Positions 3,356-30,410 are shown, counted from the stretch's first letter. The stretch: DNA of 32,000 nt from Bellilinea caldifistulae (GCF_001306055.1 NZ_LGHJ01000016.1:30001-62000), one strand, 5' to 3'. The notes: generated by a model from the letters alone, not told the origin. Numbers and translations are program-made.

Positions 3356-3359
3356 GGTT

Positions 3360-6323: not shown

Positions 6324-6358
6324 GTTGGTACTTACCCCCGCGAATTAGATTTTTTCCC

Positions 6359-6631: not shown

Positions 6632-6645
6632 GGGGATTTAGAGGC

Positions 6646-8481: not shown

Positions 8482-8498
8482 ATTGAGTCCCCCTTTTC

Positions 8499-8504
8499 AT
8501 TATA
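8499..8504 (-). promoter_or_regulatory. Candidate -10 hexamer (TATAAT) for the HD-GYP operon
   Basis: The minus strand reads GTGTATAATGAAAAGGGGGACTCAATATG. A perfect TATAAT sits 17 nt before the ATG at 8481, inside an AT-rich intergenic region. Confidence 0.4.
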
Positions 8505-8620
8505 CACAAATTTCGCCCAATACAATCCCTTGAATTTTGCTTCTTGAAATACATTTATTATTATAATTACTTTAACTCCAAAAATTGTTTATAATTTTCT
8601 TAAGTCTCAAATTCTACACA

Positions 8621-8649
8621 TTGTTTTCCGCCCGCTTTGTTTGTATAAT
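8621..8649 (+). promoter_or_regulatory. Candidate sigma70-type promoter (TTGTTT-N17-TATAAT) for the TadZ/CpaE-like gene
   Basis: A perfect TATAAT lies at 8644-8649, with a TTG-containing -35 at 17-nt spacing. A GGGGG SD lies 7 nt before the ATG at 8677. Confidence 0.4.
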
Positions 8650-8676
8650 GAGAAAAGATTATTACGGGGGTGCACT

Positions 8677-13941: not shown

Positions 13942-13946
13942 GTCTT

Positions 13947-15136: not shown

Positions 15137-15955
15137 TTGGAACAGACTTCATCCTTCGAAAAAGATTTTTTATGGCTCAATATCCGTGAATTGCCCTATT
15201 TTCGGGGGGTATTGCGTGCGGTTGAAGCCCGTTTCTACCAATCCATTGAATTGGTCGAACCGGTGCTCGATCTGGGTTGTGGAGACGGTCATTTTGCCTC
15301 AATTGCATTTGAAAAACCGCTCACCGTTGGTCTGGATCCGTGGTGGAAACCGGTCAAAGAAGCAGCAGAAAGGGGCACATACCGCCTCACATTAAGGGGC
15401 AGCGGTTCGACAATGCCCTTTGAAGATGAATCTTTCGCCAGTGTCGTCAGTAATTCAGTCCTGGAGCACATTCCCAATTTAATGCCCGTTCTGGAGGAAA
15501 CCGCGCGGGTTCTCAAACCGGGTGGATTGTTTGTGTTCTGTGTTCCCAATCATCGTTTCCTGGGAAGTCTTTCTATTGCCCAATTTTTGGATCGAACAGG
15601 CTTGAAAAGCGCAGCAAAGCGCTACCGGGGATTTTTCAACCGGATTTCTCGACATTACCATTGTGACGATTTTTCTACATGGAAGGACCGCCTGACCCGC
15701 ACCGGCTTTGAAGTGCTTCGCCATTGGGATTACTTTTCGCCGCGTGCTTTAGCCCTTCTGGAATGGGGGCATTATTTTGGTTTGCCTTCTTTGTTCAGCC
15801 GCTGGTTGTTCAAACGCTGGATTCTGGTCAGTCAGCCTTGGAATCTGGCAATCACTCGTTCGGTGTGCAAGTCGGTTTATCTGGAAACACCCCAACAAAA
15901 GGAGGGGGTTTACTCCTTTTATATTGCCCGAAAAATATCTAAACCAAACACCTGA
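15137..15955 (+). CDS. Class I SAM-dependent methyltransferase (Methyltransf_11-like)
   Basis: 272 aa. It has VLDLGCGDGHF (motif I), FASVVSNSVLEHI and LKPGGLFVF. A TTG start is inferred because there is no upstream in-frame ATG. Confidence 0.75.
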   Translation: MEQTSSFEKDFLWLNIRELPYFRGVLRAVEARFYQSIELVEPVLDLGCGDGHFASIAFEKPLTVGLDPWWKPVKEAAERGTYRLTLRGSGSTMPFEDESFASVVSNSVLEHIPNLMPVLEETARVLKPGGLFVFCVPNHRFLGSLSIAQFLDRTGLKSAAKRYRGFFNRISRHYHCDDFSTWKDRLTRTGFEVLRHWDYFSPRALALLEWGHYFGLPSLFSRWLFKRWILVSQPWNLAITRSVCKSVYLETPQQKEGVYSFYIARKISKPNT

Positions 15956-15967
15956 CATTCGAAGCGC

Positions 15968-15996
15968 TTGTCAGTAATCCGAGGCTGATGTAAGAT
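15968..15996 (+). promoter_or_regulatory. Candidate internal promoter (TTGTCA-N17-TAAGAT) ahead of the GT-C gene block
   Basis: It lies in the only sizeable gap (79 nt) in the lepA-to-cmk array. The -35 matches 5/6 and the -10 matches 4/6, keeping A2 and T6. Confidence 0.35.
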
Positions 15997-16034: not shown

Positions 16035-18254
16035 ATGGACGAATCAAAAGAACCCACTGTATTGGATTATGTCAAAGCGTTATTGATGCCGTGGAAAGGT
16101 AAACCACCGGCGCTTTCAGCGAAACAACCGACGGCTGATCAATCCTTGGTTGAACCAAAAGAAGATCTGAGTACCTCTCCTGATATTACAACGCTGGAAA
16201 TGAAGGTAGAGGAAAAGGGCGAACCGGTGGTATTCCCCTCGTCGGCTGAGGAACGATTAAAACTGCCGATTGGGTGGCGGACCTTGCTGGCATTTGTCCT
16301 GGCAGTAATTGGGCAGTCTTTTCTGGAACCTCCCCGTCAGCAGGTCAGTGTTGCACTGATCTTTTATGGTCTGGCGGTTGTCGCTCTGATATTTGCAGTG
16401 ATTTCTAAAGAGTGGTTATTAGCGGAATACGCGGATCATACGGCTACTCCAATGGCGGTTACCGTAAATCGGAATCCGATTCTGCTTTCACTACCTTTGT
16501 TGCTGCTGGCCTTTATCTTTTTTAGTGGTAATCGTTTTACTACGCTTAACCTGACTCTCTGGCTGGCAGGCACAATATCACTTGTGGCCGGGTTTTACCT
16601 TCCCTCTCGAACCCGGTTAAGCCTCAAAAGCAAAATCCGCTCATTTTTCCTTGCTCCGCAAGTGATCATCCGAATCACACCCTGGAGTATTCTGGTTCTG
16701 CTGGCCATCGGGTTGGTGGTGTTCTTCCGTTTTTATCGGTTGAGTGAAGTGCCGGGCGAGATGTTCAGTGACCATGCCGAAAAATTGATGGATGTAGCGG
16801 ATGTGCTGCAAGGACAAACATCCATTTTCTTCCCACGAAACACTGGACGTGAAGCAATTCAAATGTATTTGACTGCGCTGATTGCAATTGTTGCAGGAAC
16901 AAAACTTTCCTTCATGAGTCTGAAAATTGGGACAGCCCTGGCGGGTGTCCTGACTCTCCCTTTTATTTACTTTTCAGGAAGGGAAATTGGCGGAAATCGG
17001 GTTGGATTGCTGGCGTTTGTGCTGGCAGGTGTTGCTTATTGGGCAAATGTGATTGCTCGAATTGGGCTGCGATTCCCGCTGTATCCATTATTCGCGGCTC
17101 CAACTCTTTACTTTCTGGTCAAGGGATTGAAATACCGCAGCCGAAATGACTTTATCTGGGCAGGAATTTTCCTTGGATTGGGACTGCATGGTTACAGCCC
17201 GGCGCGTCTTGTTCCCATGGTGGTTGTTGCGGCCGTCATAATTTATCTGATTCATCGTCAATCTGAGGGTAACCGCCGCGAAGCAGTAATTGCTCTCATT
17301 CTTCTGGCGATTACCTCTCTGGCCGTGTTTCTGCCTTTGCTGCGCTATGCGCTCAGCGATCCAGAAATGTTTGCCTATCGGGCGTTGACTCGACTGGGTG
17401 AAACCGAAACGGTTTATCCGGCCCCCGTTGGGATTGTTTTCCTGAATAACTTGTGGAAGTCCATGATCATGTTCTTCTACAAAAACGGCAACATCTGGGT
17501 TCATTCGATTCCTAATCGGCCGGCGCTGGATGTGATTAGTGCGGCTTTGTTTTTCCTTGGAAGTACATTGGTGGTCATTCGTTACATTCGTCAGCGTCAC
17601 TGGCTTGATTTGTTCTTACTGGTATCCATTCCATTGCTGATGATGCCCTCAATTCTCTCGCTGGCGTTTCCGGAAGAAAATCCCTCGCTAAACCGCAGCG
17701 GTGGGGCGATCATCCCTGTGTTCATTTTAGCGGCAGTGGGATTGGATGCCGTGATTCGGTCTATCGAGCGGCGTTACTCGAACGGTTATCAACGCATCAT
17801 CCCGCTTGGAGTAACCGCTTTATTGATATTTTTCATCAGTTCGGCGAATTACGATTTGGTGTTTCGGCAGTTTGATCGGCAGTTTATGGCCGGGGCATGG
17901 AACACTTCCCAAATTGGGGCGGTGATCCGAGGTTTCAGCGAAGCACAGGGTAACCCAGATACGGCTTATGTGGTACCTTACCCGCACTGGGTAGATACCC
18001 GCCTGGTGGGTATCAATGCCGGTTTTCCCCTGAAGGACTATGCGTTGTGGCCGGATCAATTTGAAACGACTTTGAGTGAGACACGGGCTAAATTGTTTGT
18101 GATTAATCCGCGTGATGAGGATGCCGTCCATAAGTTGCAGGAGCTGTACCCGACTGGGTGGTTGTATTTTTATGATGTGGAGTTAGAAGGAAAGGATTTT
18201 CTGCTTTATTTTGTACCCCCTGCCGGGACGGAAGATGGAACAGTGCAGCCATGA
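16035..18254 (+). CDS. GT-C fold, ArnT/PMT (GT39/GT83)-like polyprenyl-phosphate-sugar-dependent glycosyltransferase candidate
   Basis: 739 aa and polytopic. After an N-terminal extension (hydrophilic ~80 aa, then 3-4 extra TMs), the core shows FFRFYRLSEVPGEMFSDHAEK (first-loop acidic motif), a helix rich in small residues, and GLGLHGY. The C-terminus is a soluble domain of about 130 aa. Confidence 0.65.
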   Translation: MDESKEPTVLDYVKALLMPWKGKPPALSAKQPTADQSLVEPKEDLSTSPDITTLEMKVEEKGEPVVFPSSAEERLKLPIGWRTLLAFVLAVIGQSFLEPPRQQVSVALIFYGLAVVALIFAVISKEWLLAEYADHTATPMAVTVNRNPILLSLPLLLLAFIFFSGNRFTTLNLTLWLAGTISLVAGFYLPSRTRLSLKSKIRSFFLAPQVIIRITPWSILVLLAIGLVVFFRFYRLSEVPGEMFSDHAEKLMDVADVLQGQTSIFFPRNTGREAIQMYLTALIAIVAGTKLSFMSLKIGTALAGVLTLPFIYFSGREIGGNRVGLLAFVLAGVAYWANVIARIGLRFPLYPLFAAPTLYFLVKGLKYRSRNDFIWAGIFLGLGLHGYSPARLVPMVVVAAVIIYLIHRQSEGNRREAVIALILLAITSLAVFLPLLRYALSDPEMFAYRALTRLGETETVYPAPVGIVFLNNLWKSMIMFFYKNGNIWVHSIPNRPALDVISAALFFLGSTLVVIRYIRQRHWLDLFLLVSIPLLMMPSILSLAFPEENPSLNRSGGAIIPVFILAAVGLDAVIRSIERRYSNGYQRIIPLGVTALLIFFISSANYDLVFRQFDRQFMAGAWNTSQIGAVIRGFSEAQGNPDTAYVVPYPHWVDTRLVGINAGFPLKDYALWPDQFETTLSETRAKLFVINPRDEDAVHKLQELYPTGWLYFYDVELEGKDFLLYFVPPAGTEDGTVQP

Positions 18255-21200
18255 GTGAGGGTGTTTCCACCACGAAAAAAGTGCAAAGCCGGCTTTTTAT
18301 TGAGCCGATTCGTCTAAGCTGGCTTTTGGACATTTGCCTGCTTGGCGTTTTACTCGTTGGATTAATCCTCCGGTTTAATGGTTTGGAATGGGGGGAAGGA
18401 CAATATCTTCATCCAGATGAGCGATTTCTGGTGTGGGTTACGGCCGATTTGAAACCCGTTGATCGAGTGGGAGATTATTTTGATACGGCTCAATCCACCC
18501 TGAACCCTCACAATGTCGGTCATCGCTTTTTTGTTTACGGCACATTCCCGATTTTTCTAACCCGCTACCTGGCCGAATGGGCTTTTTCCAGTAACGGTTG
18601 GGAACAAATAATTGTGGTTGGCAGGAGTTTGAGCGCGCTGTTTGACCTGTTGACGGTGCTGTTGGTTTTTTTGATTGGGGAACGCCTTTGGGGAAAAGTC
18701 GCTGGGATTTTAGGGGCAACATTTTCTGCGCTGGCTGTGTTGCAAATTCAGCAGGCTCATTTTTATACGACAGATTCTTTTGCTACTTTTTTCTCAACGC
18801 TGGCGATCTATTTTGCCGTCCGCTTGGCGACCCTGACGGAAAAACCGGTAGAAGAGCAATCCTCCCGTAATTTGGTTGAAAAAATTGATGCTCGGGTGGT
18901 GTGGAATTGTGCCGTCTTTGGGGCGGCAGCAGGTCTGGCGGCCGCCTGTAAAATCCACGTTGGAGTTGTGGCATTAATCCTGCCGGGTGTTCTGTTGTGG
19001 GGGTATTTTAATCCGAGACGCGAAAACAGGTTTTTTACACCGATGGAGGTTTTGGGCGGTTTGCTGATCGGTGGGCTCAGCGCATTTGTGATCTTTCGGC
19101 TGTTCCAGCCATATGCTTTTCAGGGGCCGCAGGTTTGGAATGTCCTCCCAAATCCGCTGTGGGTGGAGAATCTGAAAAGTTTACTGGCACAAACCGGCGG
19201 TGATGTGGATTTTCCACCGGCATTGCAATGGGCGCGTCGTCCCATTACTTTTTCCTTTCAAAACATGGTGCTCTGGGGAATGGGACTCCCAATGGGCTTG
19301 TTGGCCTGGACAGGAATGATCTGGCTGGGTTGGCAGTTGATCAAGAACCGCTTCACCCATCCTTTTACTGCTGTTTGGGGGTGGACGGTCTTGTTCTTTA
19401 TCTGGCAGTCCTTGCAGGGCAATCCGACGATGCGTTATCAGCTGCCGATTTATCCAATTTTGGCATTGACCGCTGGCTGGACAATATTCGCTTTGTGGGA
19501 AAAAGCAAATCACGTTTACCGGAACAACCCGGTGAAAATCCGGCAAAGTCGTTGGGGGATCATTGGGCTAGGTCTGATTGTTATGGGGTTGACAGCCGGA
19601 TGGGCGGTTGCCTTTGATGGGATTTACACGCGCCCGGTGACGCGGGTTGAGGCATCACGCTGGATTTATCAAAACGTACCGGGAGCGGTGAACCTGACCA
19701 TTCGTATGGAAAACGAAGAGTATCATCAACCGCTGGCTTTTACTTCGCTGATGGTTCTACAGCGAGGTGAAGCAATCCATACCAGTTTTCGCGCTGCTCA
19801 AAGCGGGACGATAAGTGAAATTTACTTTGACAACATCCGCGACTTGACCCTCAATGATAATCCCAAGACATTGCTTGTCACGATTCAGGAAGCCGGAGAG
19901 GTCTATGCTGCCAAAGGCTCAGGTATGCTGATGCAAACCTTTGCGGAAAATCAGCCCCGTCCCCACAGGCTTGTTCTGGATTTTCCACTGGCAGTGGAGG
20001 CGGGTAAGCTGTACACGATTTCGGTTTGGTTTGAGGGGGCAGAAACAGCCCTCTCTTTGCAGGGTGGGGGTGCGGTACTGATCCGTAATGAGGAGGGTAC
20101 ATTCCGCCAGCTTTTGGTAGATTGGACGGAATCTGTCCGGTCAAACCGCCCTCTGGAAATCACTTTCCAGCCACTTCGATCCGGACTCTTGAACGAGATT
20201 GGATTTTACCGAATTGTGGATCGGACTGCATCGCAAGGGATGAAAACCTTTCGGATCGAGGTTTTTGACCGCAGTATTGCTGGGCAACCGCTCAGCAACG
20301 CAATTCTGACTGATGATTTTACGGCTGAAGGGCTGGATGCACGAGGAAAAAGCGTGAGTTTAGCACTAAATCCACCTTTGAAAGTGGAGGCGGGAAAAAC
20401 TTACACCATTCAAATGGATCTGGTGGAGGGGGAAGGAGAGATTGTCTTTTTCCCTGCTGCGGGTGTAAATGAAACGGTTTGGGACGACGGCTTACCTTTA
20501 CGCCTGGAAGGGTTTGACCCATATGGAGGGATTTATCCGCGTGATTTGACACTTGATTTATATGCCGATGATTCGGTGGAAAAGCGTGAGCAGATGATTG
20601 ATTTGCTCAACCGGGCGGATTATATCTATATCTCATCCAACCGGCAGTGGGGAACAACTACCCGATTACCTGAACGTTACCCGCTGACCACCGCTTACTA
20701 TCGCTACTTGCTGGGGTGTCCGGCGGAGAAAGACCTTTTATGGTGCTACCGGGTTGCCCAACCGGGCATGTTCAACGGTCAACTGGGTTTTGAACTGGTA
20801 GCCGTTTTTCAGTCCAACCCGAAATTGGGGGGAGTCGAAATCAACACCCAATTTGCAGAAGAGGCTTTCACGGTTTACGACCATCCCAAAGTGCTGATTT
20901 TCAAAAAAATTGAGGGATTTGATCCCCTTCAAACAGCGCGTCTTTTGAGAAGTGTGGATTTATCAGCAGTGATCCACGTCCTTCCCGGAAGGGCACCTTC
21001 TTACCCGGCCAACCTGATGCTGCCGGATCATCTGCTGGCATTACAGCGCAGCGGCGGGACCTGGGCTGAGTTATTTGACAGCAATGGTCTGCTGAACCGT
21101 TTTCCGATGTTGGGCTGGTTGATTTGGTATCTTGTCATCAGTGTAGTGGGGTGGATTGCCTATCCGATTTTGCGCGTAGCCATGAAGGGGTTGCCGGACC

Positions 21201-23551
21201 ATGGTTTTCCCCTTAGCAAGATTGCTGGCTTACTTTTCTTATCCTGGGGGGTATGGCTGATTGCGTCCCTGGGAGGCAGGTTTGAGCGTAGCACAATAAC
21301 AATCGTATTCTTGATTCTGCTGCTATTCAGTGGGTTGGCAACTTTCTGGCAGCGTAATGATTTAATTGAGGAATTTCGCGAGCGAAAAGCATATTATCTG
21401 CGGGTTGAAGGGATTGGGCTGGCATTTTTTATATTCTTCACTTTGATTCGGATTGGTAACCCGGATTTGTGGCATCCCGCCTTTGGCGGCGAGAAGCCGA
21501 TGGACTTTGCCTACTTTAACGCCATACTGAAAAGCACTGTTTTTCCCCCATACAATCCATGGTACAGTGGTGGATACATCAACTATTATTACTACGGATT
21601 TGTGCTGGCAGGGGTACCAACCAAATGGCTGGGAATTATCCCTTCAATAGCCTACAACCTGATCCTGCCGACGATGTTTGCTACCTTTGCCTTGGGCGCA
21701 TTCAGCGCGGGTTGGAACATTGCTGCTCATTTTCTCAAAGAGAGCAGACAATCCGATGAAGGGGTTGGGGGAAAGCGGTCTGTCTTTGGAAAACCGTTTT
21801 GGATGGGGCTTGGGTCCGCCATTGCAGCCTTGATTCTGGGCAATCTGGGCACTGCCAGGATGATCTGGCACGGTTTGATGCGCCTTGCGATGAGTGGTTC
21901 ATCACTGGAAGAGGCAAACTTTTTCTTGAAACTTTCCTGGACAATTCAGGGACTTTCTCGCTTTTTAGCCGGAGCGCGGCTGCCTTACAGCACAGGTGAC
22001 TGGTACTGGATTCCCAGCCGGGCATTGCCGGGTGAAGCCATTACGGAATTCCCGTTTTTTACATTCTTATATGCGGATCCCCACGCTCACCTGTTTGCGC
22101 TTCCCTTAACGATGTTGGCTCTGGGCTGGTGTCTTTCGGTGGTTTTTGGTCAATGGCGTTGGGGATTCAATCAGGTAAAAACTGTCCCAGCCTTTCTTCT
22201 TTCGCTACTGGTGGGCGGACTGGTCATTGGGGTTTTACGACCAACCAACACGTGGGATATGCCCACTTATCTGGGATTGGGGGTTTCTGCTCTGGTCTAC
22301 TCCGCCATTCGTTATGATAGCAGTTGGGATGCTTACCTGAAAGGTATTCCGGTTTGGTTAAAACGGTTGGCGGTTGGTCTGGGGGCCAGCTTGGTTTTGA
22401 CCGGGTTATCATTTCTCTTATTCCTGCCGTATTCGCAATGGTACGCGCAGGGTTATGGTAGTGTGCAACTATGGGAAGGAAGCCGCTCCCCGGTTGCTTC
22501 CTATCTGACCCATTGGGGTTTGTTTTTCTTTGTGATTGCCTCGTGGTTGGTATATGAAACCATCCACTGGATGGCGAACACTCCGCTCTCGTCGTTGCAA
22601 AAATTGCGTCCATGGCGGTTCTGGATTTTCAGTGGGCTGGGGATTTATCTGTTAGCCGTTGTTTTGTTAAATGTTTCTTTGAAAGTCGAAATTGCCTTTT
22701 ACCCGCTCACTATAGCAGTGTGGTGTTTGATTTTGCTGCTTCGACCTTATCAACCGGATGCCAAACGCGCTGTACTGTTTCTGATTGGTACAGGAGTCAC
22801 CCTGACGCTGATGGTGGAAGTTATCGTATTGGTGGGTGATATTGGCCGGATGAATACTGTGTTCAAGTTTTACTTGCAGGCCTGGAATTTGCTGGCCATC
22901 AGCGCGGCAGCGGCGACCGGCTGGTTGCTGCCAGCCATTGAGTCCCAATGGAAATCCGGCTGGAAGCCCGTCTGGCAGTTTGTACTGAGTGCTTTATTGG
23001 TTGCAGCGTTGTTATATCCGCTGATGGCGGGGGCAGCCAAGGTTCGCGATCGAATGAGCAGTATTGCTCCACATGGATTGGATGGGATGGCGTATATGCG
23101 TACAGCGGAGTATTCCGATCAGGGGCGCACGATGGATCTCAGTCAGGATTACCGCGCCATACGTTGGATGCAGGAGAATGTGAAAGGTTCGCCGGTGATT
23201 GTGGAAGCCAACACACCATTGTATCGGTGGGGATCGCGTTTTTCGATTTACACCGGGCTGCCAACCATCATCGGCTGGGACTGGCATCAACGCCAGCAAC
23301 GAGCAGCGGTGCAGAATGATTTTACCGTTCAAAACCGCATTCTGGATGTTGCCGAAATTTACAACAGTCTCTCGAAGGAGGTCGTCAGAGAACTTTTAGA
23401 CCGATACGCTGTACAATATATTATTGTGGGGCAGTTGGAACAGGCTTATTACGAGCCGGCAGGACTATCCAAATTCCCCCAATGGGATGGTGAACTTTGG
23501 AAAGAAGTTTACCGCGATATGGACACGGTGATTTATGAGGTAATCCCTTGA
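18251..23551 (+). CDS. Giant 1766-aa membrane protein: N-terminal GT-C-like module, duplicated beta-rich extracytoplasmic modules, and a C-terminal DUF2298/'Chlor_Arch_YYY' module
   Basis: The start overlaps the previous stop (ATGA). Residues 1-460 are multi-TM with YLHPDERF in the first loop. Residues ~461-950 are soluble and contain a tandem repeat. Residues ~952-1766 are collinear with the 856-aa ORF at 23917 (LPDHGF, EKPMDFAYFNAILKS, FPPYNPW, NYYYYG, EFPFFTFLYADPHAH, NTWDMPTYLGL, GRMNTVFKFYLQAW). Confidence 0.8.
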   Translation: MSEGVSTTKKVQSRLFIEPIRLSWLLDICLLGVLLVGLILRFNGLEWGEGQYLHPDERFLVWVTADLKPVDRVGDYFDTAQSTLNPHNVGHRFFVYGTFPIFLTRYLAEWAFSSNGWEQIIVVGRSLSALFDLLTVLLVFLIGERLWGKVAGILGATFSALAVLQIQQAHFYTTDSFATFFSTLAIYFAVRLATLTEKPVEEQSSRNLVEKIDARVVWNCAVFGAAAGLAAACKIHVGVVALILPGVLLWGYFNPRRENRFFTPMEVLGGLLIGGLSAFVIFRLFQPYAFQGPQVWNVLPNPLWVENLKSLLAQTGGDVDFPPALQWARRPITFSFQNMVLWGMGLPMGLLAWTGMIWLGWQLIKNRFTHPFTAVWGWTVLFFIWQSLQGNPTMRYQLPIYPILALTAGWTIFALWEKANHVYRNNPVKIRQSRWGIIGLGLIVMGLTAGWAVAFDGIYTRPVTRVEASRWIYQNVPGAVNLTIRMENEEYHQPLAFTSLMVLQRGEAIHTSFRAAQSGTISEIYFDNIRDLTLNDNPKTLLVTIQEAGEVYAAKGSGMLMQTFAENQPRPHRLVLDFPLAVEAGKLYTISVWFEGAETALSLQGGGAVLIRNEEGTFRQLLVDWTESVRSNRPLEITFQPLRSGLLNEIGFYRIVDRTASQGMKTFRIEVFDRSIAGQPLSNAILTDDFTAEGLDARGKSVSLALNPPLKVEAGKTYTIQMDLVEGEGEIVFFPAAGVNETVWDDGLPLRLEGFDPYGGIYPRDLTLDLYADDSVEKREQMIDLLNRADYIYISSNRQWGTTTRLPERYPLTTAYYRYLLGCPAEKDLLWCYRVAQPGMFNGQLGFELVAVFQSNPKLGGVEINTQFAEEAFTVYDHPKVLIFKKIEGFDPLQTARLLRSVDLSAVIHVLPGRAPSYPANLMLPDHLLALQRSGGTWAELFDSNGLLNRFPMLGWLIWYLVISVVGWIAYPILRVAMKGLPDHGFPLSKIAGLLFLSWGVWLIASLGGRFERSTITIVFLILLLFSGLATFWQRNDLIEEFRERKAYYLRVEGIGLAFFIFFTLIRIGNPDLWHPAFGGEKPMDFAYFNAILKSTVFPPYNPWYSGGYINYYYYGFVLAGVPTKWLGIIPSIAYNLILPTMFATFALGAFSAGWNIAAHFLKESRQSDEGVGGKRSVFGKPFWMGLGSAIAALILGNLGTARMIWHGLMRLAMSGSSLEEANFFLKLSWTIQGLSRFLAGARLPYSTGDWYWIPSRALPGEAITEFPFFTFLYADPHAHLFALPLTMLALGWCLSVVFGQWRWGFNQVKTVPAFLLSLLVGGLVIGVLRPTNTWDMPTYLGLGVSALVYSAIRYDSSWDAYLKGIPVWLKRLAVGLGASLVLTGLSFLLFLPYSQWYAQGYGSVQLWEGSRSPVASYLTHWGLFFFVIASWLVYETIHWMANTPLSSLQKLRPWRFWIFSGLGIYLLAVVLLNVSLKVEIAFYPLTIAVWCLILLLRPYQPDAKRAVLFLIGTGVTLTLMVEVIVLVGDIGRMNTVFKFYLQAWNLLAISAAAATGWLLPAIESQWKSGWKPVWQFVLSALLVAALLYPLMAGAAKVRDRMSSIAPHGLDGMAYMRTAEYSDQGRTMDLSQDYRAIRWMQENVKGSPVIVEANTPLYRWGSRFSIYTGLPTIIGWDWHQRQQRAAVQNDFTVQNRILDVAEIYNSLSKEVVRELLDRYAVQYIIVGQLEQAYYEPAGLSKFPQWDGELWKEVYRDMDTVIYEVIP
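19793..20065 (+). repeat. Intragenic protein repeat, module 1 (...SGTISEIYFDNIRD...DFPLAVEAGKLYTISVWFEG)
   Basis: Aligns with module 2. Both contain the nucleotide string GTGGAGGCGGG(T/A)AA, encoding VEAGK (19994 and 20384). Confidence 0.6.
20171..20455 (+). repeat. Intragenic protein repeat, module 2 (...SGLLNEIGFYRIVD...NPPLKVEAGKTYTIQMDLVEG)
   Basis: A diverged tandem copy of module 1. The period is about 130 aa. Confidence 0.6.
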
Positions 23552-23571
23552 ACACACAACAAACTTCCGAC

Positions 23572-23898
23572 ATGATTTATCACATTGCGGAACAAAAAGA
23601 GTGGCTAAAAGGTATCGAGTTGGGCTCATACCGGTCCGATTCTCTGAGGGTTGAAGGTTTCATCCATTGTTCTACGCGTGAACAGGTCATGGAAGTAGCC
23701 GAGAGATTATTCTCTGATCGGACGGATGTGGTTGTGTTGGAAATTGACCAGGAGTCCTTACCGGTAGAGGTCAGGTACGAAATCGCTCCAAATGGAAACG
23801 CTTATCCTCATGTATATGGAGAAATCCCGCTTGAAGCAATCCGGCGAGTTCTGGTTCTCGATTGGAAAAATCGCAGGTTGGAAGATTTATCTGCCTGA
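23572..23898 (+). CDS. DUF952 family protein
   Basis: The ATG at 23572 gives MIYHIAEQKEWL...EGFIHCST...YPHVYGEIPLEAI. Both the size (108 aa) and the motifs are as I recall for DUF952. The TTG at 23548 in the track is a less likely start. Confidence 0.7.
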   Translation: MIYHIAEQKEWLKGIELGSYRSDSLRVEGFIHCSTREQVMEVAERLFSDRTDVVVLEIDQESLPVEVRYEIAPNGNAYPHVYGEIPLEAIRRVLVLDWKNRRLEDLSA

Positions 23899-23916
23899 AC
23901 GGTTGGGGATGAAGCG

Positions 23917-26487
23917 ATGAGCCAAATTCTGATGACATTGATCTGGTATTTGATGGTTACGGCGGCGGGTTACTTAACGCTGCCTCTGGCTTTTCGCTTT
24001 CTGAAGTTTTTACCGGATCGCGGCTTTACCTTCAGCCGTTCGCTGGGATTGCTGCTGTGGGGATACATCTTTTGGCTGCTGACTACTTTTGGTCTGTTAC
24101 AAAACAATGCCGGAGGGGTTCTTTTCGGACTGATTTTGCTGGCGGGTGTGAGCGCCTTTTTCATGCGCGGAGGTTGGTTTGAGTTCAAGGACTGGTTCGG
24201 TACGCAGAGGCGGTTAATTTTAACGGCTGAAAGTCTGTTTTTGATTGCTTATCTTTCCTGGACGGTGGTAAGGGCTGCTAATCCCGAAATCATCTATACC
24301 GAGAAGCCGATGGAATTGGCCTTTATCAATGCTATCTTGCGCTCACCATCCTTTCCTCCCTTCGATCCATGGCTGGCAGGATATGCAATCTCCTATTATT
24401 ACTTTGGTTACGTTATTGTCGCGATGTTGATCCACCTGAGCGGGGTGCCCAGTTCGATTGGGTTCAATTTGGGGATTGCCATGTGGTTTGGGTTGACTGC
24501 ACTGGCTGCGTATGGGGTTTTGTTCAATCTATTGAGCGGTATCCTGTCTACGAATAAACCGGCGGAATCAAACCGAAAAGCGGTTGGCTGGGCGTTGTTG
24601 GCACCGCTGTTTATCCTGATTGTCAGCAATCTGTCCGGCCTGCTGGACATCCTGCATGCGCGGGGCATCTTCTGGCAGCGTAATCCACAAGGGGTTCTGG
24701 AATCATCCTTTTGGAAATGGCTGGGAATTCAGGAGTTTGACCAACCCCCGCCGGAACCGCTTTCGTGGACGCCCAAGCGTACTTACTGGTTGTGGTGGCG
24801 CGGCTCACGCGTATTGCAGGATTTTAACCTGCTCAATCAGCGCGAAGAAGTGATTGATGAATTTCCTTTCTTCTCCTATCTGCTGGCAGATATGCACCCG
24901 CATGTCCTGGGAATGCCGTTTGTCCTTTTGGCTGCCGGTTTAGCATTGAATTTTTACTTTTCTTTCAAAAAACAATCGCCCCCGGAACCTTCGGTTTTGA
25001 ACTGGCTCAAAGATCCACATATCTGGTTAAGCGCCTTGATTTTTGGCGGTCTTTCTTTTTTGAATACATGGGATTTTCCCATCTATCTGGGGTTGTTTGC
25101 AGGAGTATATGTCTTCTACCGTTATTTGCACAACGGGTGGGGGTGGCAGCGGGTTGGGGATTTTGTGTTTGTGGCAATAACGGTGGGAATTCTGGGAATT
25201 TTGCTGTATTTGCCGTTTTATTTGGGTTTTTCTTCGCAGGCAGGCGGTTTTCTGCCGAGCCTGATTTTTCACACCCGCGGGGTGCATTTCTGGGTCATGT
25301 TTGCGCCTTTGCTGTTACCCATTTTGTTCTGGCTGCTTCTTCAGGGTGGAGGTTACCTGCGGCCGGGGTTGCGCTGGGGTGTGCTGCTCGGATCCGCTAT
25401 TGTAGCGGCGGGTTGGATTTTGATGCTGATCGCCAGTAAGGTGATCGAACTGGCCGGATTAATTGGACAAACGTGGATGACTGCTGCTGACACCAATCTG
25501 GCAAGGATGGGGCAAACGCTGACCAGTTTGAGCGGCTTGTTTTTCATCAAACAGGGCGGATCGGGTACGGAATTGTTTCAGGCTGCTTTACTGCGGCGGA
25601 TTAGCGCCCCGGGTACGTGGCTCACATTGATGATTATTTTGATTTTCGTATTTGCCACGATTGTCACTTTGCGGCGTTTATATGGTTTTTCTCTGGCGTC
25701 AGAAAATGATCCTGTTCGGTCATTGCCGGAAGAAGATCAAAACCGGGGTTTTGTATTATTGTTGATTTTGCTGGGTGCGGGTTTGACTCTCGCACCGGAG
25801 TTTTTCTATTTACAGGATGATTTTGGCACCCGAATGAACACAATCTTCAAGTTCTATTTTCAGACATGGATTTTGTGGGGAATTGCGGCCGCCTATTCGA
25901 GTGCCATTCTTTTGCAGCGATTCCACGACGGACGGGGAGGGGTGGTAAAAATTGTCTGGGTGATCCTGATGGCATGTTCTTTGATTTATCCGGGGGTGAT
26001 GCTACCGGCCAAAACGGGGCTACTCCGCGGCCAGCCCGTTTCATTGACTCTGGATGGAAAAGCTTACTTACAGCGCGATGAACCGGATGAATGGCAGGCA
26101 TTCCAGTTTTTATGGGAGATGCCTTTGGGAAATGTAGTTGAAGCGGTCGGTCCACAATACAACCCTCAATTCGCAAGGGTTGCGACCCATGCCGGTCAAC
26201 CCGGTTTGTTGGGTTGGGAAGGCCACGAAATTCAGTGGCGGGGTACTGCCCGGGAGATGGGCTCACGCCGGGTAGATATTGAGACTCTCTATCAGACCAG
26301 CGATTGGTTGAGGGCTAGGGAAATTATCCAGCAATATGGCATCCGTTATATTTATATCGGGCCGGTAGAACGAAGTGCCTATCGTGTTTCCGAAAATAAG
26401 TTTTCGGCAAATTTGGGTTTGCTATTTGCTAATTCCAATGTGCGGATATACGAAGTGCCGGATGCACTGGTGGAAAAAACACCCTGA
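23917..26487 (+). CDS. DUF2298/'Chlor_Arch_YYY' polytopic membrane protein (single-module form)
   Basis: 856 aa. It has LPDRGF, EKPMELAFINAILRS, FPPFDPW, SYYYFG (24391-24408), EFPFFSYLLADMHPH, NTWDFPIYLGL and TRMNTIFKFYFQTW. The C-terminus is a soluble domain ending IRYIYIGPVERSAY...VRIYEV. It is a paralogue of the C-terminal half of the 1766-aa protein. Confidence 0.8.
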   Translation: MSQILMTLIWYLMVTAAGYLTLPLAFRFLKFLPDRGFTFSRSLGLLLWGYIFWLLTTFGLLQNNAGGVLFGLILLAGVSAFFMRGGWFEFKDWFGTQRRLILTAESLFLIAYLSWTVVRAANPEIIYTEKPMELAFINAILRSPSFPPFDPWLAGYAISYYYFGYVIVAMLIHLSGVPSSIGFNLGIAMWFGLTALAAYGVLFNLLSGILSTNKPAESNRKAVGWALLAPLFILIVSNLSGLLDILHARGIFWQRNPQGVLESSFWKWLGIQEFDQPPPEPLSWTPKRTYWLWWRGSRVLQDFNLLNQREEVIDEFPFFSYLLADMHPHVLGMPFVLLAAGLALNFYFSFKKQSPPEPSVLNWLKDPHIWLSALIFGGLSFLNTWDFPIYLGLFAGVYVFYRYLHNGWGWQRVGDFVFVAITVGILGILLYLPFYLGFSSQAGGFLPSLIFHTRGVHFWVMFAPLLLPILFWLLLQGGGYLRPGLRWGVLLGSAIVAAGWILMLIASKVIELAGLIGQTWMTAADTNLARMGQTLTSLSGLFFIKQGGSGTELFQAALLRRISAPGTWLTLMIILIFVFATIVTLRRLYGFSLASENDPVRSLPEEDQNRGFVLLLILLGAGLTLAPEFFYLQDDFGTRMNTIFKFYFQTWILWGIAAAYSSAILLQRFHDGRGGVVKIVWVILMACSLIYPGVMLPAKTGLLRGQPVSLTLDGKAYLQRDEPDEWQAFQFLWEMPLGNVVEAVGPQYNPQFARVATHAGQPGLLGWEGHEIQWRGTAREMGSRRVDIETLYQTSDWLRAREIIQQYGIRYIYIGPVERSAYRVSENKFSANLGLLFANSNVRIYEVPDALVEKTP

Positions 26488-26496
26488 GATGTCAAT

Positions 26497-28218
26497 ATGA
26501 TGAAAAAGAACTCATTTTCTCTAAATGGTGAAAAGGTTTTATATGGATTGATCTTGATCATTGGGCTTGCTTTACGATTAATTCAACTGGGCAAGCTGCC
26601 GCTCAGTGATGAAGAGGCCCGGCTGGCTTTGCAGGCGTTTGGGTTAGCCAGCGGTGAAAGTTCGCCATTTTTCAATCCGGACGGCGGTTATTTGATTACG
26701 ACGACTGGATTATTTTTTATCTTTTCTAAAAGTGAATTTCTGGCTCGCCTGATCCCGGCTTTGGCAGGAACGCTGATTTGCCTGATTCCGTTGGCATTTC
26801 AAAGACTTCTGGGAAGAAAAACGGCTTTGATTGCCGCGTTCGGGCTGGCATTGGACGGCGGCTGGCTTGCGGCTTCCCGGCAAGCCGGCAGTCACACCTG
26901 GGCAGTCTTGTTCTTATTGGCTGTAATTTGGGCTGTCTCCTCTCGGCGCTGGAAAATGGCAGGTATTTTTAGCGGTTTACTGTTACTGGGAGGGGTTGAG
27001 GTTTGGAAAGGTTTAATCCCTTTGGGGGTTGCTATTGGGGTTTATAATCTCTGGTTCAGGTGGGAAAGTTTTGCGTGGAACGACGTATGGCTATCGTTTA
27101 GGAATAATTGGAAAGAATTTCTGACTTGGGCGGTCGGGGCTTTGCTGGTTCTTGGGAGCTTGTTCTTAATCCTGCCGACCGGATGGAGCGCAATGGGAGG
27201 CGGTCTGATTTCTTATCTGCGTGGTTGGAACAACCCTTCCGGTGTTTCAGTGGGGATGATCTTAACAGCCATGCTGATTTATCAGCCGATCAGCACCCTG
27301 TTTGGTTTAATTGCTTCCCTCCGGCAGATCAAAAAATCTGTGAGTCTGGAACTCTTTTTGACGATTTGGAGTTTTTTTGCCCTGATTCATTGCTTCCTCT
27401 ATCCAGCGCGTGAAGTTCTGGATGTGTTATGGGTATCGCTTCCGCTTCTCGGTTTGGCGGCGCGACTTTTATCATCTCTGTTGCGTTTTAATTTTGATCA
27501 ACGCATTGCAGCACTGATATACGGGGTGGTGGTTTTGATATTTTTGATGTTTACTTCACAAAATATCATGCGCCTATTCAGCCCGGGGCGGGTGGCAGTC
27601 AATACTCAACCTGAAATCATTGCTATTCTGGCTGCTTTGTTGTTTGTGATCATTTCCGTTATTTTGATCGGGTGGGGATGGTCTACCCGTGTGGCTGGTT
27701 ATGGGGTCACATGGGGACTACTGGTATGGCTGATGCTCTTTTGGCTGTCTGGGAGCTTTCATGCAGCCGGTTTGGGCGAAAATCCGGAAACAAATCCCTT
27801 TCGACGGGGCTGGTTCATCAGCGAAGCGGATTTGCTAAAAGATACCATTGGTGATTTATCGGAACTGAATGTGCGCTCACGCACGGGATTGGATGTAATG
27901 GCGATTGGATTGGATCAACCGGCAATGCGCTGGTTCGCCAGAGAATTCACCAATTTTAAGTTTGAAAATACTTTTCAACCCCAAATTCAGAGTTCAATTG
28001 TTCTAACAGGATCATCGGAGGGGGTCGTTTTTGGGGAAAATTATCGTGGGCAAGATTTCCATTGGCAAGTACAGCCAATTTGGGATCTAATGACAGCCAA
28101 GGAATGGATGCAGTGGGCAATTTTCAAAATTGCTCCCCTGGAAAACAAGATGATCTTCTTATGGGCGAGAGAAAGTCTCTTCCCGGGTAGTGAAATTTCA
28201 AACGAGGTGCAACCTTGA
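26497..28218 (+). CDS. Polytopic membrane protein with a GT-C-like N-terminus (possible partner family of the YYY proteins)
   Basis: 573 aa. It has LYGLILIIGLALRLIQLGKLPLSDEEARLA (a TM then a DEE loop, as in ArnT/PMT-type enzymes), about 12 further TMs, and a C-terminal soluble domain of about 140 aa. Family assignment is tentative. Confidence 0.5.
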   Translation: MMKKNSFSLNGEKVLYGLILIIGLALRLIQLGKLPLSDEEARLALQAFGLASGESSPFFNPDGGYLITTTGLFFIFSKSEFLARLIPALAGTLICLIPLAFQRLLGRKTALIAAFGLALDGGWLAASRQAGSHTWAVLFLLAVIWAVSSRRWKMAGIFSGLLLLGGVEVWKGLIPLGVAIGVYNLWFRWESFAWNDVWLSFRNNWKEFLTWAVGALLVLGSLFLILPTGWSAMGGGLISYLRGWNNPSGVSVGMILTAMLIYQPISTLFGLIASLRQIKKSVSLELFLTIWSFFALIHCFLYPAREVLDVLWVSLPLLGLAARLLSSLLRFNFDQRIAALIYGVVVLIFLMFTSQNIMRLFSPGRVAVNTQPEIIAILAALLFVIISVILIGWGWSTRVAGYGVTWGLLVWLMLFWLSGSFHAAGLGENPETNPFRRGWFISEADLLKDTIGDLSELNVRSRTGLDVMAIGLDQPAMRWFAREFTNFKFENTFQPQIQSSIVLTGSSEGVVFGENYRGQDFHWQVQPIWDLMTAKEWMQWAIFKIAPLENKMIFLWARESLFPGSEISNEVQP

Positions 28219-28904
28219 CCATACCCAACAGCATTGCAATAGACGGGCCGGCATCGTCCGGTAAATCAACGATAGGGGTGAGGCTTGCCGAACGACTGGG
28301 ATATTTGTTTTTTGATACAGGAATAATGTACCGGGCAGTTACGCTGGCGGTTATTCGGGCAGGGATCGGCGTGGATGATGAAGAAGGGGTTACCCAACTG
28401 GCTCATCGCGTACACATTGATGTACGTCCCCCGACAGTTGCCGATGGGCGAAAAGAAGATGTGCTTTTGGATGGCGAGGATGTCACCTGGGCGATCCGCG
28501 AGCCGGAAGTTGAGAAAAGGGTTTCAAAGATTTCCGCTTATGCAGGGGTTCGGCGGGCAATGACCGAGCTGCAGCGACGGATTGGCAAACGAGGAAGAGT
28601 GGTGATGGTTGGCAGAGATATTGGCACAGTGGTCATGCCGGACGCCGATCTTAAGATTTTTCTAGATGCGTCTTTGGAAGAACGAGCAAGACGGCGTTTT
28701 CGAGAACTGATTCAACGAGGTGAAGCGGTCAGATTTGAAGATGTGCTTGCCGGTTTGAAACAGCGCGATCAAATTGATTCTTCCCGTGAGATTGCCCCTC
28801 TGAAGCCAGCGGACGATGCGGTCATCCTCAACACGGATGGATTGAGCGTTGAAGAGGTTTTGAAAAGGGTTTTTGAATTGTGCAAGGATTGTGGAGATGA
28901 CTGA
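28215..28904 (+). CDS. cmk: Cytidylate kinase
   Basis: 229 aa. It has IAIDGPASSGKSTIG (P-loop), FDTGIMYRA and GRDIGTVV. The TTG start overlaps the upstream stop (TTGA). Confidence 0.88.
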   Translation: MTIPNSIAIDGPASSGKSTIGVRLAERLGYLFFDTGIMYRAVTLAVIRAGIGVDDEEGVTQLAHRVHIDVRPPTVADGRKEDVLLDGEDVTWAIREPEVEKRVSKISAYAGVRRAMTELQRRIGKRGRVVMVGRDIGTVVMPDADLKIFLDASLEERARRRFRELIQRGEAVRFEDVLAGLKQRDQIDSSREIAPLKPADDAVILNTDGLSVEEVLKRVFELCKDCGDD

Positions 28905-30390
28905 AAATCATCAAGTGGAGCAGGAACTACGGGATACCCGTCATATCCTTAATCGCCTTCTGGCGGTTAGTCCCGCGGTGATTTATTCCACAACGCCATT
29001 CCCCCCATACCGGGTTCGGTATATCAGCGAAAATGTGACGATTGTTACCGGTTATTCGCCGGAGCAATTCATCGAAGATGCCGGTTTCTGGAAATCGAAG
29101 GTTCATCCTGAAGACCGTCCAATGGTTTTGGAGCAGTTGAATAAAATGCAACTGCTTGATTACATAGAAATGGAATACCGTTTTTTAGCAGCTGACGAAC
29201 AATATCATTATCTTCGCGAGGAAATTAAAATCCTGCGTGACGCCGAAGGACAACCCATTGAAGGAATCGGATATTTTATTGACATTACCCGCCAAAGGAA
29301 TTACGAGGAAGCCATCCGCCAAAGCGAAAATCTTTACAGAAGCCTGGCAGAAGCATCACGAGATTTGATCATTTTAATTTCCCGTGAAAAAACGATTGAG
29401 TACATCAATAGTTACGCGCGGCAGGCACTGGGATGGGGCGAATTCCAAACCCGATTGCCATCTTATAGTCATATTTTGAAATTGATCCCCGAAAGCCCAG
29501 TTCAACAAGTTTTTCAGACTCAACAGGCTGTTTACACCGAAAATTCAGCCGTTATTTCGAAGCGAAAAATTTGGCTTGGCACCTGGTTAGTGCCTATTTT
29601 CACCTCCCAAGACGAAGTTGAATTTGTGATGGCCGTTGCCAGAGACATAACGCGGCAGAGAGAGACAGAAGAGGAACTTCAGCGGGCATTAAAGGCAGAG
29701 CAGGAACTCAATTCATTACGCTACCGTTTTTTAACGATGACCACCCATGAATTTAAAACACCCATCAGTACAATCCTCTCCTCGATTGAGCTTCTGGAAA
29801 CTTACGGCGAACGTTGGAGTGCGGAAAAGCGGAGTGATCACATCAACCGCATTAAAGCCGCTGCTCAACGGCTCAATCAAATGTTGAGTGATGTGTTGGA
29901 GGTCAATCGGGTGGAAAGCAGCGCAGGATTGGAAGCCAGCGAGAAAGTGGATCTTCTTCAATTGTGCCATGATGTTATTAGCGAGATTCAGCAGGCAGAC
30001 CAGAATCAGCACCCGCTGGTATTCGTCCATACCGGCGAGTTGAGCCTTTTGAGGACCGAACCGCGCTCCTTGCGAAATATCATTTCAAATTTACTTTCCA
30101 ATGCAGTGAAGTACTCATATCCCGGTAATGAAGTGATGTTAGAACTGACCACCGCTCCAGATCATTTTTGGATCAAAGTACATGACCGAGGGATTGGGGT
30201 TCCGGAGAAGGATCGCGAAAATCTTTTTGAGCCGTTTTATCGTGGAGAAAATGTTAATTCTATTCCTGGCACAGGGCTTGGCTTGACCATTGTCAAGCGC
30301 TCGGTGGAAGCATTGGGGGGGGAAATTCACTATGAGGAAAAAGCCGAGGGTGGGTCTATATTCATTGTCCGCATTCCGGTAAGAACTTAA
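28897..30390 (+). CDS. Cytoplasmic PAS-PAS sensor histidine kinase
   Basis: The ATG at 28897 overlaps the cmk stop by 8 nt. Two PAS-like regions are present. The H-box is MTTHEFKTPIS, the N-box NLLSNAVKYS, G1 DRGIGV and G2 GTGLGLTIV. No TM segment is present. Confidence 0.85.
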   Translation: MTENHQVEQELRDTRHILNRLLAVSPAVIYSTTPFPPYRVRYISENVTIVTGYSPEQFIEDAGFWKSKVHPEDRPMVLEQLNKMQLLDYIEMEYRFLAADEQYHYLREEIKILRDAEGQPIEGIGYFIDITRQRNYEEAIRQSENLYRSLAEASRDLIILISREKTIEYINSYARQALGWGEFQTRLPSYSHILKLIPESPVQQVFQTQQAVYTENSAVISKRKIWLGTWLVPIFTSQDEVEFVMAVARDITRQRETEEELQRALKAEQELNSLRYRFLTMTTHEFKTPISTILSSIELLETYGERWSAEKRSDHINRIKAAAQRLNQMLSDVLEVNRVESSAGLEASEKVDLLQLCHDVISEIQQADQNQHPLVFVHTGELSLLRTEPRSLRNIISNLLSNAVKYSYPGNEVMLELTTAPDHFWIKVHDRGIGVPEKDRENLFEPFYRGENVNSIPGTGLGLTIVKRSVEALGGEIHYEEKAEGGSIFIVRIPVRT

Positions 30391-30410
30391 TCAGTGGAGA
30401 ATTACACGGG

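Follow-up and report, generated by a model that had tools for sequence, protein, structure and literature searches.

A block of four large open reading frames (ORFs) at positions 16035-28218 of the DNA analysed here, a 32,000-nucleotide stretch (the window) from Bellilinea caldifistulae (Anaerolineae, Chloroflexota; record DF967971.1, near 1.8 Mb), encodes five membrane modules of the GT-C glycosyltransferase fold. Three of these modules are PMT_2/ArnT-like (ORF1, the N-terminal module of ORF2, here ORF2-N, and ORF5), while the remaining two are paralogous members of the YYY or DUF2298 family (the C-terminal module of ORF2, here ORF2-C, and ORF4). We consider it probable that the block is the extracytoplasmic half of a class-wide Anaerolineae operon that assembles a core envelope glycoconjugate. 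In the reading that we favour, a conserved and probably methylated envelope glycoconjugate would be assembled on the outside face of the membrane from polyprenyl-phosphate sugars, with a coupled pair of PMT-like and YYY modules as the core of the machinery. The transferase activity of the block, its donor and its acceptor are predicted here from sequence.

Organization of the block

The original prediction, made from the sequence alone, had described four consecutive co-directional large ORFs holding five GT-C modules. The four ORFs were recovered exactly as described (16035-18254, 18251-23551, 23917-26487 and 26497-28218), their lengths (739, 1766, 856 and 573 amino acids) equal those of the public gene calls for DF967971.1, ORF4 and ORF5 each have a 100% match, and each motif quoted at the time translates exactly at the position given. 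The small DUF952 ORF between ORF2 and ORF4 had been assigned 108 amino acids; from its TTG start it has 116, agreeing with the public call. All five genes lie on the plus strand with stop and start codons that overlap or nearly abut, including 4-base overlaps at the ORF1/ORF2, ORF2/DUF952 and ORF5/cmk junctions, and these overlapping codons imply co-translation. The features of the block are as follows.

16035-18254, plus strand: ORF1, 739 amino acids, PMT_2/ArnT-like GT-C module (PF13231, 40.7 against 26.1 bits)
18251-19615, plus strand: ORF2 N-module membrane core, residues 1-455, PMT/PMT_2-like GT-C (PMT and PMT_2 profiles)
19616-21112, plus strand: ORF2 extracytoplasmic region, residues 456-954 (DUF4082 match; without hydrophobic segments)
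21113-23551, plus strand: ORF2 C-module, Chlor_Arch_YYY/DUF2298 GT-C, fused in frame (TIGR03662, 512.7 against 300.25 bits)
23548-23898, plus strand: DUF952 small cytoplasmic protein, optional operon passenger (PF06108, E 1.6e-27)
23917-26487, plus strand: ORF4, 856 amino acids, stand-alone YYY/DUF2298 GT-C protein (TIGR03662, 501.7 bits; structure model and Foldseek)
26497-28218, plus strand: ORF5, 573 amino acids, GT-C-fold protein without a Pfam model (structure model and Foldseek)

Searches with profile hidden Markov models (HMMs) and structural comparison placed all five modules in the GT-C fold, as had been predicted, and a transporter fold fails as a description of them. ORF1 and ORF2-N were assigned through the PMT and PMT_2 HMMs, ORF2-C through its homology to ORF4, and ORF4 and ORF5 through AlphaFold2 (AF2) models, for which every significant Protein Data Bank (PDB) match found by Foldseek was a GT-C protein. 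A sequence search of the PDB with each protein and with the YYY and ORF5 family profiles returned nothing significant; fold comparison alone was informative. In all five modules the loop that follows the canonical first GT-C helix carries a conserved acidic motif, and a soluble domain makes up the C-terminal part.

The YYY/DUF2298 modules

The presence of two YYY-family modules was borne out by the TIGR03662 scores listed above, and both modules are full members of the family, with the TIGR03663-like ORF5 adjacent. ORF2 residues 955-1764 and ORF4 also match PF10060 with 369 and 365 bits against a cut-off of 27.8 (E about 1e-109). The YYYxG motif is found in both, as NYYYYG at 21581-21598 in ORF2-C and SYYYFG at 24391-24408 in ORF4, and S159, Y160, Y161, Y162, G164 and Y165 are invariant across 60 homologues. 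The acidic motif reads EKPMD(F) at 21491-21508 in ORF2-C and EKPME(L) at 24301-24318 in ORF4. Alignment of the two families with hhalign gave 100% probability at 29% amino acid identity. The paralogues are thus less similar than orthologues (40-50% identity), which indicates that the duplication is old and that both copies have been retained. Other invariant YYY positions are D150/W152, D302, E315, D325-x-H327-P-H329, S440-QAGG and R639-x-N641...K645-x-Y647; the residues of these motifs are candidate donor or metal ligands.

A 14-mer shared by the two YYY genes, GAGAAGCCGATGGA, had been singled out in the original prediction. It does occur only at 21491 and 24301, but it does not exceed chance, and two further 15-mers are common to the genes at positions that are not homologous. 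We rejected gene conversion and a DNA element as explanations because equally long non-homologous matches exist, and we read the shared 14/15-mer simply as a conserved run of EKPM codons.

The AF2 model of ORF4 (predicted local distance difference test score, pLDDT, 90.5; predicted TM-score, pTM, 0.92) contains about 16 transmembrane helices. Its best Foldseek match is CeDPY19 (E 2e-6, probability 1.0), with Pmt4 and Pmt1 next at high probability. The C-terminal domain (about 700-856, the last 160 or so residues) matches the C-domain of A. fulgidus AglB-S2 (Foldseek probability 0.99; 3vu0, TM-score 0.48). A profile of 33 YYY C-domains likewise had 3vu0 as its top PDB sequence match (E 0.0088), while a second AglB domain, 3vgp, gave E 0.15. 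True STT3 sequences were taken from PDB alignments for a comparison with hhalign, which aligned YYY ...IRYIYIGPVERSAYRVSENKF with STT3 ...DVDYVLVIFGGLIGFGGDDINKF in the DK-motif region (P 0.0016, probability just 16%). The aligned stretches are IRYIYIG...ENKF in YYY and DVDYVLVIFGG...DDINKF in STT3, and by eye a VRIY(E/K)V strand ends both families. The WWDYG motif is not conserved in YYY, where the region holds the family-invariant GWxGH(E/Q)xQ(W/Q)R. Neither YYY module matches the STT3 or Dpy19 families of Pfam; one of the 33 C-domains matches an AglB_core-like family at E 0.056 (Pfam, E<=10) and the others do not. The sole STT3-type match is a sub-threshold one to TIGR04154 (archaeo_STT3) on the ORF2 N-module (21.7 against 450 bits). 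The YYY C-domain is therefore probably a distant homologue of the oligosaccharyltransferase C-domain and not a member of that family.

These likenesses bear on a rival explanation in which the block is a protein-glycosylation system, with the YYY proteins as oligosaccharyltransferase or DPY19-type enzymes, the PMT-like modules as protein O-mannosyltransferases, and secreted, sheath or S-layer proteins as targets. Such a system would fit the closest solved structures to ORF4 (DPY19, a protein C-mannosyltransferase, and Pmt4 and Pmt1), the AglB-S2 and DK-motif matches of the C-domain, and the position of ORF1 and ORF2-N within the PMT/PMT_2 families. We nonetheless regard it as somewhat unlikely. 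The WWDYG motif of STT3/AglB/PglB is replaced by another, the Pfam matches to STT3 and Dpy19 are missing and the hhalign probability is low. PMT_2 includes ArnT-type lipid and glycan transferases too. The best structural match of ORF5 is ArnT, which acts on lipid A, and the presence of five modules next to several methyltransferases points to a glycan built in multiple steps. As acceptor we tentatively favour a polysaccharide linked to the wall or to lipid over a protein.

The PMT-like modules

ORF1 passes the gathering threshold of PMT_2. It carries about four extra N-terminal helices, its SDxAEK motif (16767-16784) follows the canonical first transmembrane helix (TM1), and its C-terminal soluble domain spans residues 607-739. 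ORF2 residues 1-455, scanned alone, pass marginally for both PMT (PF02366, 26.0 against 22.7 bits) and PMT_2 (26.3 against 26.1 bits), and the motif HPDE(RF) lies at 18410-18427 in the first outside loop. The alignment of the ORF1 family with ORF2-N by hhalign (82% probability) maps ORF1 residues 216-603 onto ORF2 residues 25-450. Profile-profile comparison weakly interlinks ORF1, ORF2-N and ORF5 (82%, 62% and 36% probability) and gave no link between this group and the YYY pair.

Nearly 2000 homologues of the ORF2 N-half were collected, mostly PMT/PMT_2 and DUF2298 fusions of 1600-1680 amino acids; they carry PF02366/PF13231, and some are named 'phospholipid carrier-dependent glycosyltransferase'. 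Between the two modules, ORF2 residues 456-954 contain no hydrophobic segments. This outside region includes a beta-sandwich-type DUF4082 domain (about 20156-20431; 28.5 against 28.4 bits), is densely conserved at residues 741-960, and is presumably alpha/beta in its C-terminal part. Self-BLAST detected no internal repeat in it. We presume residues 456-954 to be an acceptor-binding region.

The ORF5 family

The AF2 model of ORF5 (pLDDT 87.9) has a beta-rich C-terminal domain and matches ArnT best in Foldseek (E 5.8e-8, TM-score 0.52-0.54). Further matches were ALG12, ALG9, STT3, EmbB (E 5e-4), Pmt4, PIG-U, GPI-MT-I and PimE, all of the GT-C fold, while transporters appeared at insignificant scores only. 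ORF5 and 43 relatives (44 members) match no Pfam family; at E<=0.1 there were four scattered single-member chance matches (E 0.013-0.086), and none of the 44 matches PMT or PMT_2. An exhaustive profile search at E<=1e-30 places 1665 representative clusters (50% identity) in the family, whereas a word-indexed search found just 48 relatives; the family therefore diverges fast. E40 is invariant, as are the arginines R27 and R84, and D38 is the majority residue only.

TIGR03663 (Agl23) is the only NCBIfam model that ORF5 matches, and all 44 members match it below the cut-off (E down to 3e-15). ORF5 itself falls outside the family, at 43.2 against 126.25 bits over residues 16-146 (model positions 4-136 of 435). 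TIGRFAMs describes TIGR03663 proteins as PMT-like at the N-terminus, which would make them GT-C-like there, and their genes as adjoining TIGR03662 (YYY) genes. It is accordingly conceivable that ORF5, and perhaps other modules, is an Agl23-like translocator (scramblase) of polyprenyl-phosphate-linked sugars that serves the adjacent YYY enzymes. The ORF4-ORF5 adjacency in 62 of 68 loci fits the described pairing of the two families, and the faster evolution of ORF5 and its few invariant residues point in the same direction. The Agl23 of Haloarcula hispanica has been described as a putative hexose-P-dolichol flippase; in proteoliposomes the purified protein carried out translocation of lipid-linked Man5GlcNAc2, and Agl23 also rescued yeast rft1-delta (PMC11182771). 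Because the nearest named family of ORF5 is a reported flippase, one 'GT-C module' may not be a transferase. We still judge a translocator role for ORF5 to be unlikely: the match covers its first part only at one third of the cut-off, the first external loop (EL1) keeps the invariant E40 together with R27 and R84, the whole-protein fold with its periplasmic domain is ArnT-like, and the operon already contains a dedicated flippase-like protein.

Acidic motifs and topology

Motif conservation was scored across 24-71 orthologues, the ORF1 motif in 41 sequences. Conserved in at least 95% were S245, D246, A248, E249 and K250 of ORF1; H54, P55, D56 and E57 of ORF2-N; E1081, P, M and D1085 of ORF2-C; T128, E129, P, M and E133 of ORF4; and E40 of ORF5. 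This degree of conservation indicates that the acidic motifs are under selection.

The motifs had been placed in the first extracytoplasmic loop of every module. That position holds for the ORF2 N-module and ORF5, but not for ORF1, in which the motif comes after about the fifth hydrophobic helix, or for the YYY modules, in which it comes after the fourth. In ORF1 and the YYY modules it occupies the first loop of the GT-C core, with extra N-terminal helices preceding the canonical TM1/EL1. Our crude hydropathy predictor misses helices, so only local positive-inside evidence was used and whole-protein parity was not. In each module a Lys/Arg-rich loop precedes the transmembrane helix before the motif, and by this local rule the acidic motifs are predicted to face outside instead of the cytoplasm. 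The ORF2 fusion agrees: ORF4 is predicted to begin with its N-terminus outside and the YYY module of ORF2 directly follows a 500-residue non-hydrophobic outside region, so that one topology is consistent with both.

Conservation of the locus among Anaerolineae

A genome scan with the YYY profile yielded 591 relatives, of which the best 80 of 591 were inspected, with tblastn of all window proteins. The recurring order is lepA, a flippase-like gene, a short-chain dehydrogenase/reductase (SDR) gene, a glycosyltransferase family 4 (GT4) gene, (a methyltransferase gene), (ORF1), fused ORF2-N and ORF2-C, (DUF952), ORF4, ORF5 and cmk. About 90% of the Anaerolineae loci that could be tested share this order, with proteins 40-50% identical. 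Where the flanking DNA sufficed, ORF2-C was found in 60/64 loci, ORF2-N in 54/56, ORF1 in 47/53, GT4 in 47/51, ORF5 in 62/68, cmk in 61/66 and DUF952 in 37/74. The typical protein identity is 40-50%; for ORF5 it is 26-35%. Gene co-conservation, proposed as a check on the block, is thus strong in related Anaerolineae loci. The limits of the unit needed revision: the ORFs of 16035-28218 belong to it, yet the conserved unit begins about 4 kb upstream, at about 11876, with the following genes.

11876-12895, plus strand: flippase-like membrane protein, LPG_synthase_TM/TIGR00374 (PF03706, E 4.2e-40; TIGR00374, 71.8 against 43.2 bits)
12916-13941, plus strand: extended-SDR NAD-dependent sugar epimerase/dehydratase (PF16363 and PF01370, E about 1e-51 to 1e-55)
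13911-15116, plus strand: GT4 (GT-B fold) cytoplasmic glycosyltransferase (PF00534, PF13439)
15137-15955, plus strand: class I S-adenosylmethionine-dependent methyltransferase (PF08241, PF13489)

The ORF2 fusion is present in nearly all loci. At locus L162 it is split into adjacent genes for 962 and 840 amino acids with the full cluster kept, and at L161:10001-15322 a stand-alone PMT-type protein (1075 amino acids) and a short DUF2298 protein (659 amino acids) form a minimal PMT-like/YYY pair outside the lepA-cmk cluster, among redox and cytochrome genes of a 5.4-Mb genome. Fusion in hundreds of homologues, adjacency in L162 and the isolated pair in L161 support the PMT-like/YYY pairing by the Rosetta-stone argument, and indicate that this pair is the conserved functional core.

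Clusters of relatives contain accessory genes for FkbM and class I methyltransferases, a YfhO-like GT-C protein, a GNAT protein and an acyltransferase. Extra genes inserted in relatives lie at the following positions.

L025:979-2970
L016:2091-2894
L045:2485-3291
L057:2900-3610

The inserts between the GT4/methyltransferase genes and ORF1 encode a YfhO-like GT-C protein (664 amino acids) and FkbM-family or class I methyltransferases. These inserted genes hint at lineage-specific tailoring of the product, such as O-methylation.

The constancy of the region could also mean that the genes are neighbours by housekeeping synteny only and serve different pathways, such as lipid or protein modifications that are independent of one another. 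lepA and cmk flank the block in nearly all loci, tlyA and the mevalonate (MVA) genes are syntenic too, which speaks for a stable regional order, and the functionally unrelated DUF952 accompanies the block in half of the loci. We find this explanation very unlikely given the coherent theme of the genes (SDR, GT4, methyltransferases, flippase-like protein and five GT-C modules), the fusion of PMT-like and YYY modules in one polypeptide, the recurrence of that pair outside the neighbourhood in L161, the glycan-tailoring character of the accessory insertions, and the overlapping start and stop codons.

The DUF952 gene overlaps the ORF2 stop codon and recurs between the two YYY genes, yet in only half of the loci, as counted above; its protein is homologous to the hypothetical protein CC0527, which has a solved structure (2o0q) and no known function. 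Downstream of cmk, a PAS histidine kinase and a hybrid response-regulator/kinase occupy 28873-31511. Their identity is 74-88% in the closest relatives (L001, L002) and 40-51% in L016 and, where the hybrid kinase alone is concerned, in L056. Most other loci lack them at the matching place, and a dedicated role in regulating the cluster is unlikely. A promoter scan found promoter-like sites at the shuffled expectation, the exception being one such site at 15968-15996 before ORF1. The terminator scan was uninformative, as its excess of terminator-like sites sits within T-rich membrane-protein coding sequence. Rfam detected no RNA family in the window, and a 97-nucleotide 'tRNA-Gln(ttg)' called by ARAGORN at 18884-18980 (plus strand), inside ORF2 coding sequence and without an Rfam tRNA there, is almost certainly a false positive.

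Upstream genes and a possible donor supply

The TIGR00374 flippase-like gene is the first of the conserved block after lepA and is syntenic in the Anaerolineae loci that reach it; its product is a candidate for translocating a lipid-linked intermediate. The SDR gene is conserved upstream of the GT4 gene, and the SDR falls below the equivalog cut-offs for RmlB and GalE. A methyltransferase gene is present in most loci, and additional FkbM or class I methyltransferase genes often accompany it in relatives.

A gene that might bear on the donor lies 12 kb upstream on the opposite strand.

3360-4229, minus strand: UbiA-family polyprenyl-phosphate phosphoribosyltransferase-like gene (NF008977, 279.6 against 234 bits)

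Its product passes the equivalog cut-off of NF008977, 'decaprenyl-phosphate phosphoribosyltransferase'. The mycobacterial homologue Rv3806c starts the synthesis of decaprenyl-phospho-arabinose (DPA), the donor of the Emb/Aft GT-C enzymes. In a metagenome scan with the UbiA protein, the GT-C cluster was divergent from it within 10 kb in 18 of 40 contigs of at least 9 kb, seven of the 18 being near-identical Bellilinea-like contigs; the proximity also holds in L162 and not in the remaining contigs. Without an inserted block, only tlyA and lepA separate the UbiA gene from the GT-C cluster, as they do in L162. We tentatively suggest that the UbiA gene may supply a polyprenyl-P-pentose donor to the block, for which the proximity is suggestive only. 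The window holds no DprE1/E2-type genes and no homologue of the phosphatase acting on decaprenyl-phosphoryl-phosphoribose (DPPR), so that the single UbiA/DPPR-synthase-like gene stands for the DPA pathway there.

The UbiA gene belongs to an operon on the minus strand (1596-4229) with genes for a mevalonate kinase (TIGR00549, 277.7 bits) and an isopentenyl-phosphate kinase (NF040647, 163 bits), which reads as an alternative mevalonate pathway linked to a polyprenyl-phosphate pentose-type transferase; an HD-domain phosphohydrolase gene (432-1580) follows it. Between tlyA and lepA, positions 5115-9987 encode a 402-amino acid protein with a weak SLT match, a 90-amino acid Zn-finger-like ORF, an HD-GYP protein and a response-regulator/ParA-like ATPase. 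As the tlyA-lepA spacing is only about 0.05-1.4 kb in many related contigs (L088, L103, L126, L130, L162), this segment looks like a lineage-specific insertion.

Comparison with known systems and proposed mechanism

Comparison with characterized GT-C enzymes locates the modules near several families. The YYY membrane domain is structurally closest to CeDPY19 (GT98), and in both an external helix comes after the acidic EL1 motif. With STT3/AglB/PglB (GT66) the YYY C-domain probably shares the fold of the AglB C-terminal core, to which it also bears a weak likeness in sequence. The YYY proteins differ from DPY19 and STT3 in having no sequence-family match, no WWDYG, three extra N-terminal helices and global TM-scores below 0.5, and their own invariant motifs are EKPM(D/E), YYYxG, DxHPH (ORF4 residues 325-329) and RxNxxxKxY (639-647); any use of peptide acceptors by them is hypothetical. 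PMT/PMT_2/ArnT enzymes (GT39, GT83) are alike in the EL1 Asp/Glu motif and periplasmic C-terminal domain, and the ORF5 model superposes best on ArnT. Unlike PMT proteins, those described here lack a MIR domain, and ORF2-N carries a 500-residue outside region with DUF4082 and is fused to a second GT-C module. Agl23 of H. hispanica (TIGR03663) is the nearest named relative of the N-terminal 130 or so residues of ORF5 and differs in being reported as a translocator in the archaeal dolichol pathway, ORF5 reaching one third of the cut-off.

The original prediction had also likened the block to the mycobacterial Emb/Aft arabinosyltransferases (GT53 and relatives). By analogy the logic may be the same, with several GT-C enzymes bearing outside carbohydrate-binding-type domains and acting sequentially on a wall polymer. 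The comparison does not extend beyond analogy: no module matches the Arabinose_trans or AftA families of Pfam or any other Emb/Aft sequence family, and the closest structural relatives of YYY are protein-modifying enzymes (DPY19, and STT3/AglB in the C-domain), not arabinosyltransferases.

In the mechanism that we propose for glycoconjugate assembly, the SDR, GT4 enzyme and methyltransferase would make a modified, probably O-methylated, sugar or lipid-linked primer on the cytoplasmic face. The TIGR00374 protein, and possibly ORF5 too, would move lipid-linked intermediates across the membrane. Outside, the GT-C modules would pass sugars from polyprenyl-phosphate carriers to a growing acceptor held by the soluble domains, the EL1 Asp/Glu residues might serve as catalytic or acceptor-activating groups, and the PMT-like and YYY modules of ORF2 may work as a coupled pair.

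Several points weigh against this proposal. The GT-C clan holds non-catalytic members such as PIG-U (PMC7801869), and GT-C-fold proteins that are not transferases include Agl23 with its reported flippase activity (PMC11182771). ORF5 has just 17 positions conserved in at least 95% of sequences. Compared with DPY19, the ORF4 model reaches global TM-scores of only 0.33/0.41; such modest values are to be expected from its three additional N-terminal helices and its different arrangement of domains. The 80 inspected loci are all from the closest relatives (Anaerolineae), bar two contigs with probably mis-binned labels, and because of the lepA and cmk housekeeping flanks, part of the synteny may be general genome conservation within one class. 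Donor supply is unexplained, since neither the window nor the clusters of relatives contain a GT2-type polyprenyl-phosphate sugar synthase. Finally, a literature search returned only incidental listings for DUF2298 and nothing for TIGR03662, which agrees with the earlier statement that no YYY-family protein is known to have been characterized biochemically.

Significance

The block is a variant within a well-known enzyme class that databases annotate only as DUF2298 and 'hypothetical', and general GT-C enzymology is unchanged unless the products prove unusual. The PMT-like/YYY fusion of about 1600-1770 amino acids, the GT-C fold of YYY with DPY19 nearest, its AglB-like C-domain and the class-wide operon appear to be undescribed in the literature searched. 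DUF2298/TIGR03662 gains a fold (GT-C, nearest to DPY19/STT3), candidate active-site motifs and an obligate PMT-like partner. In addition, a large ORF5-type GT-C family (more than 1600 clusters at 50% identity) without a Pfam model is exposed, and the locus is relevant to the question of whether proteins of the Agl23 type act as transferases or as flippases.

A more far-reaching reading, which we hold to be quite unlikely, is that YYY is an unrecognised GT-C branch related to the oligosaccharyltransferase/DPY19 group which, with its fused obligatory PMT-like partner and an Agl23-like protein, uses polyprenyl-phosphate sugars to build a wall glycopolymer or glycoprotein coat that is essential and common to the whole class Anaerolineae. 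If this were true, the donors might include polyprenyl-P-pentofuranose from the neighbouring DPPR-synthase homologue, and Chloroflexota would have their own counterpart to the arabinan assembly of mycobacteria, partly shared with Archaea.

In digesters, sediments and wastewater few filamentous bacteria are as abundant as the Anaerolineae, whose envelope chemistry is, to our knowledge, not established. Unlike variable capsule and O-antigen loci, the operon described here is conserved class-wide among housekeeping genes, and it therefore offers a concrete genetic handle on what is probably a core component of the Anaerolineae envelope.

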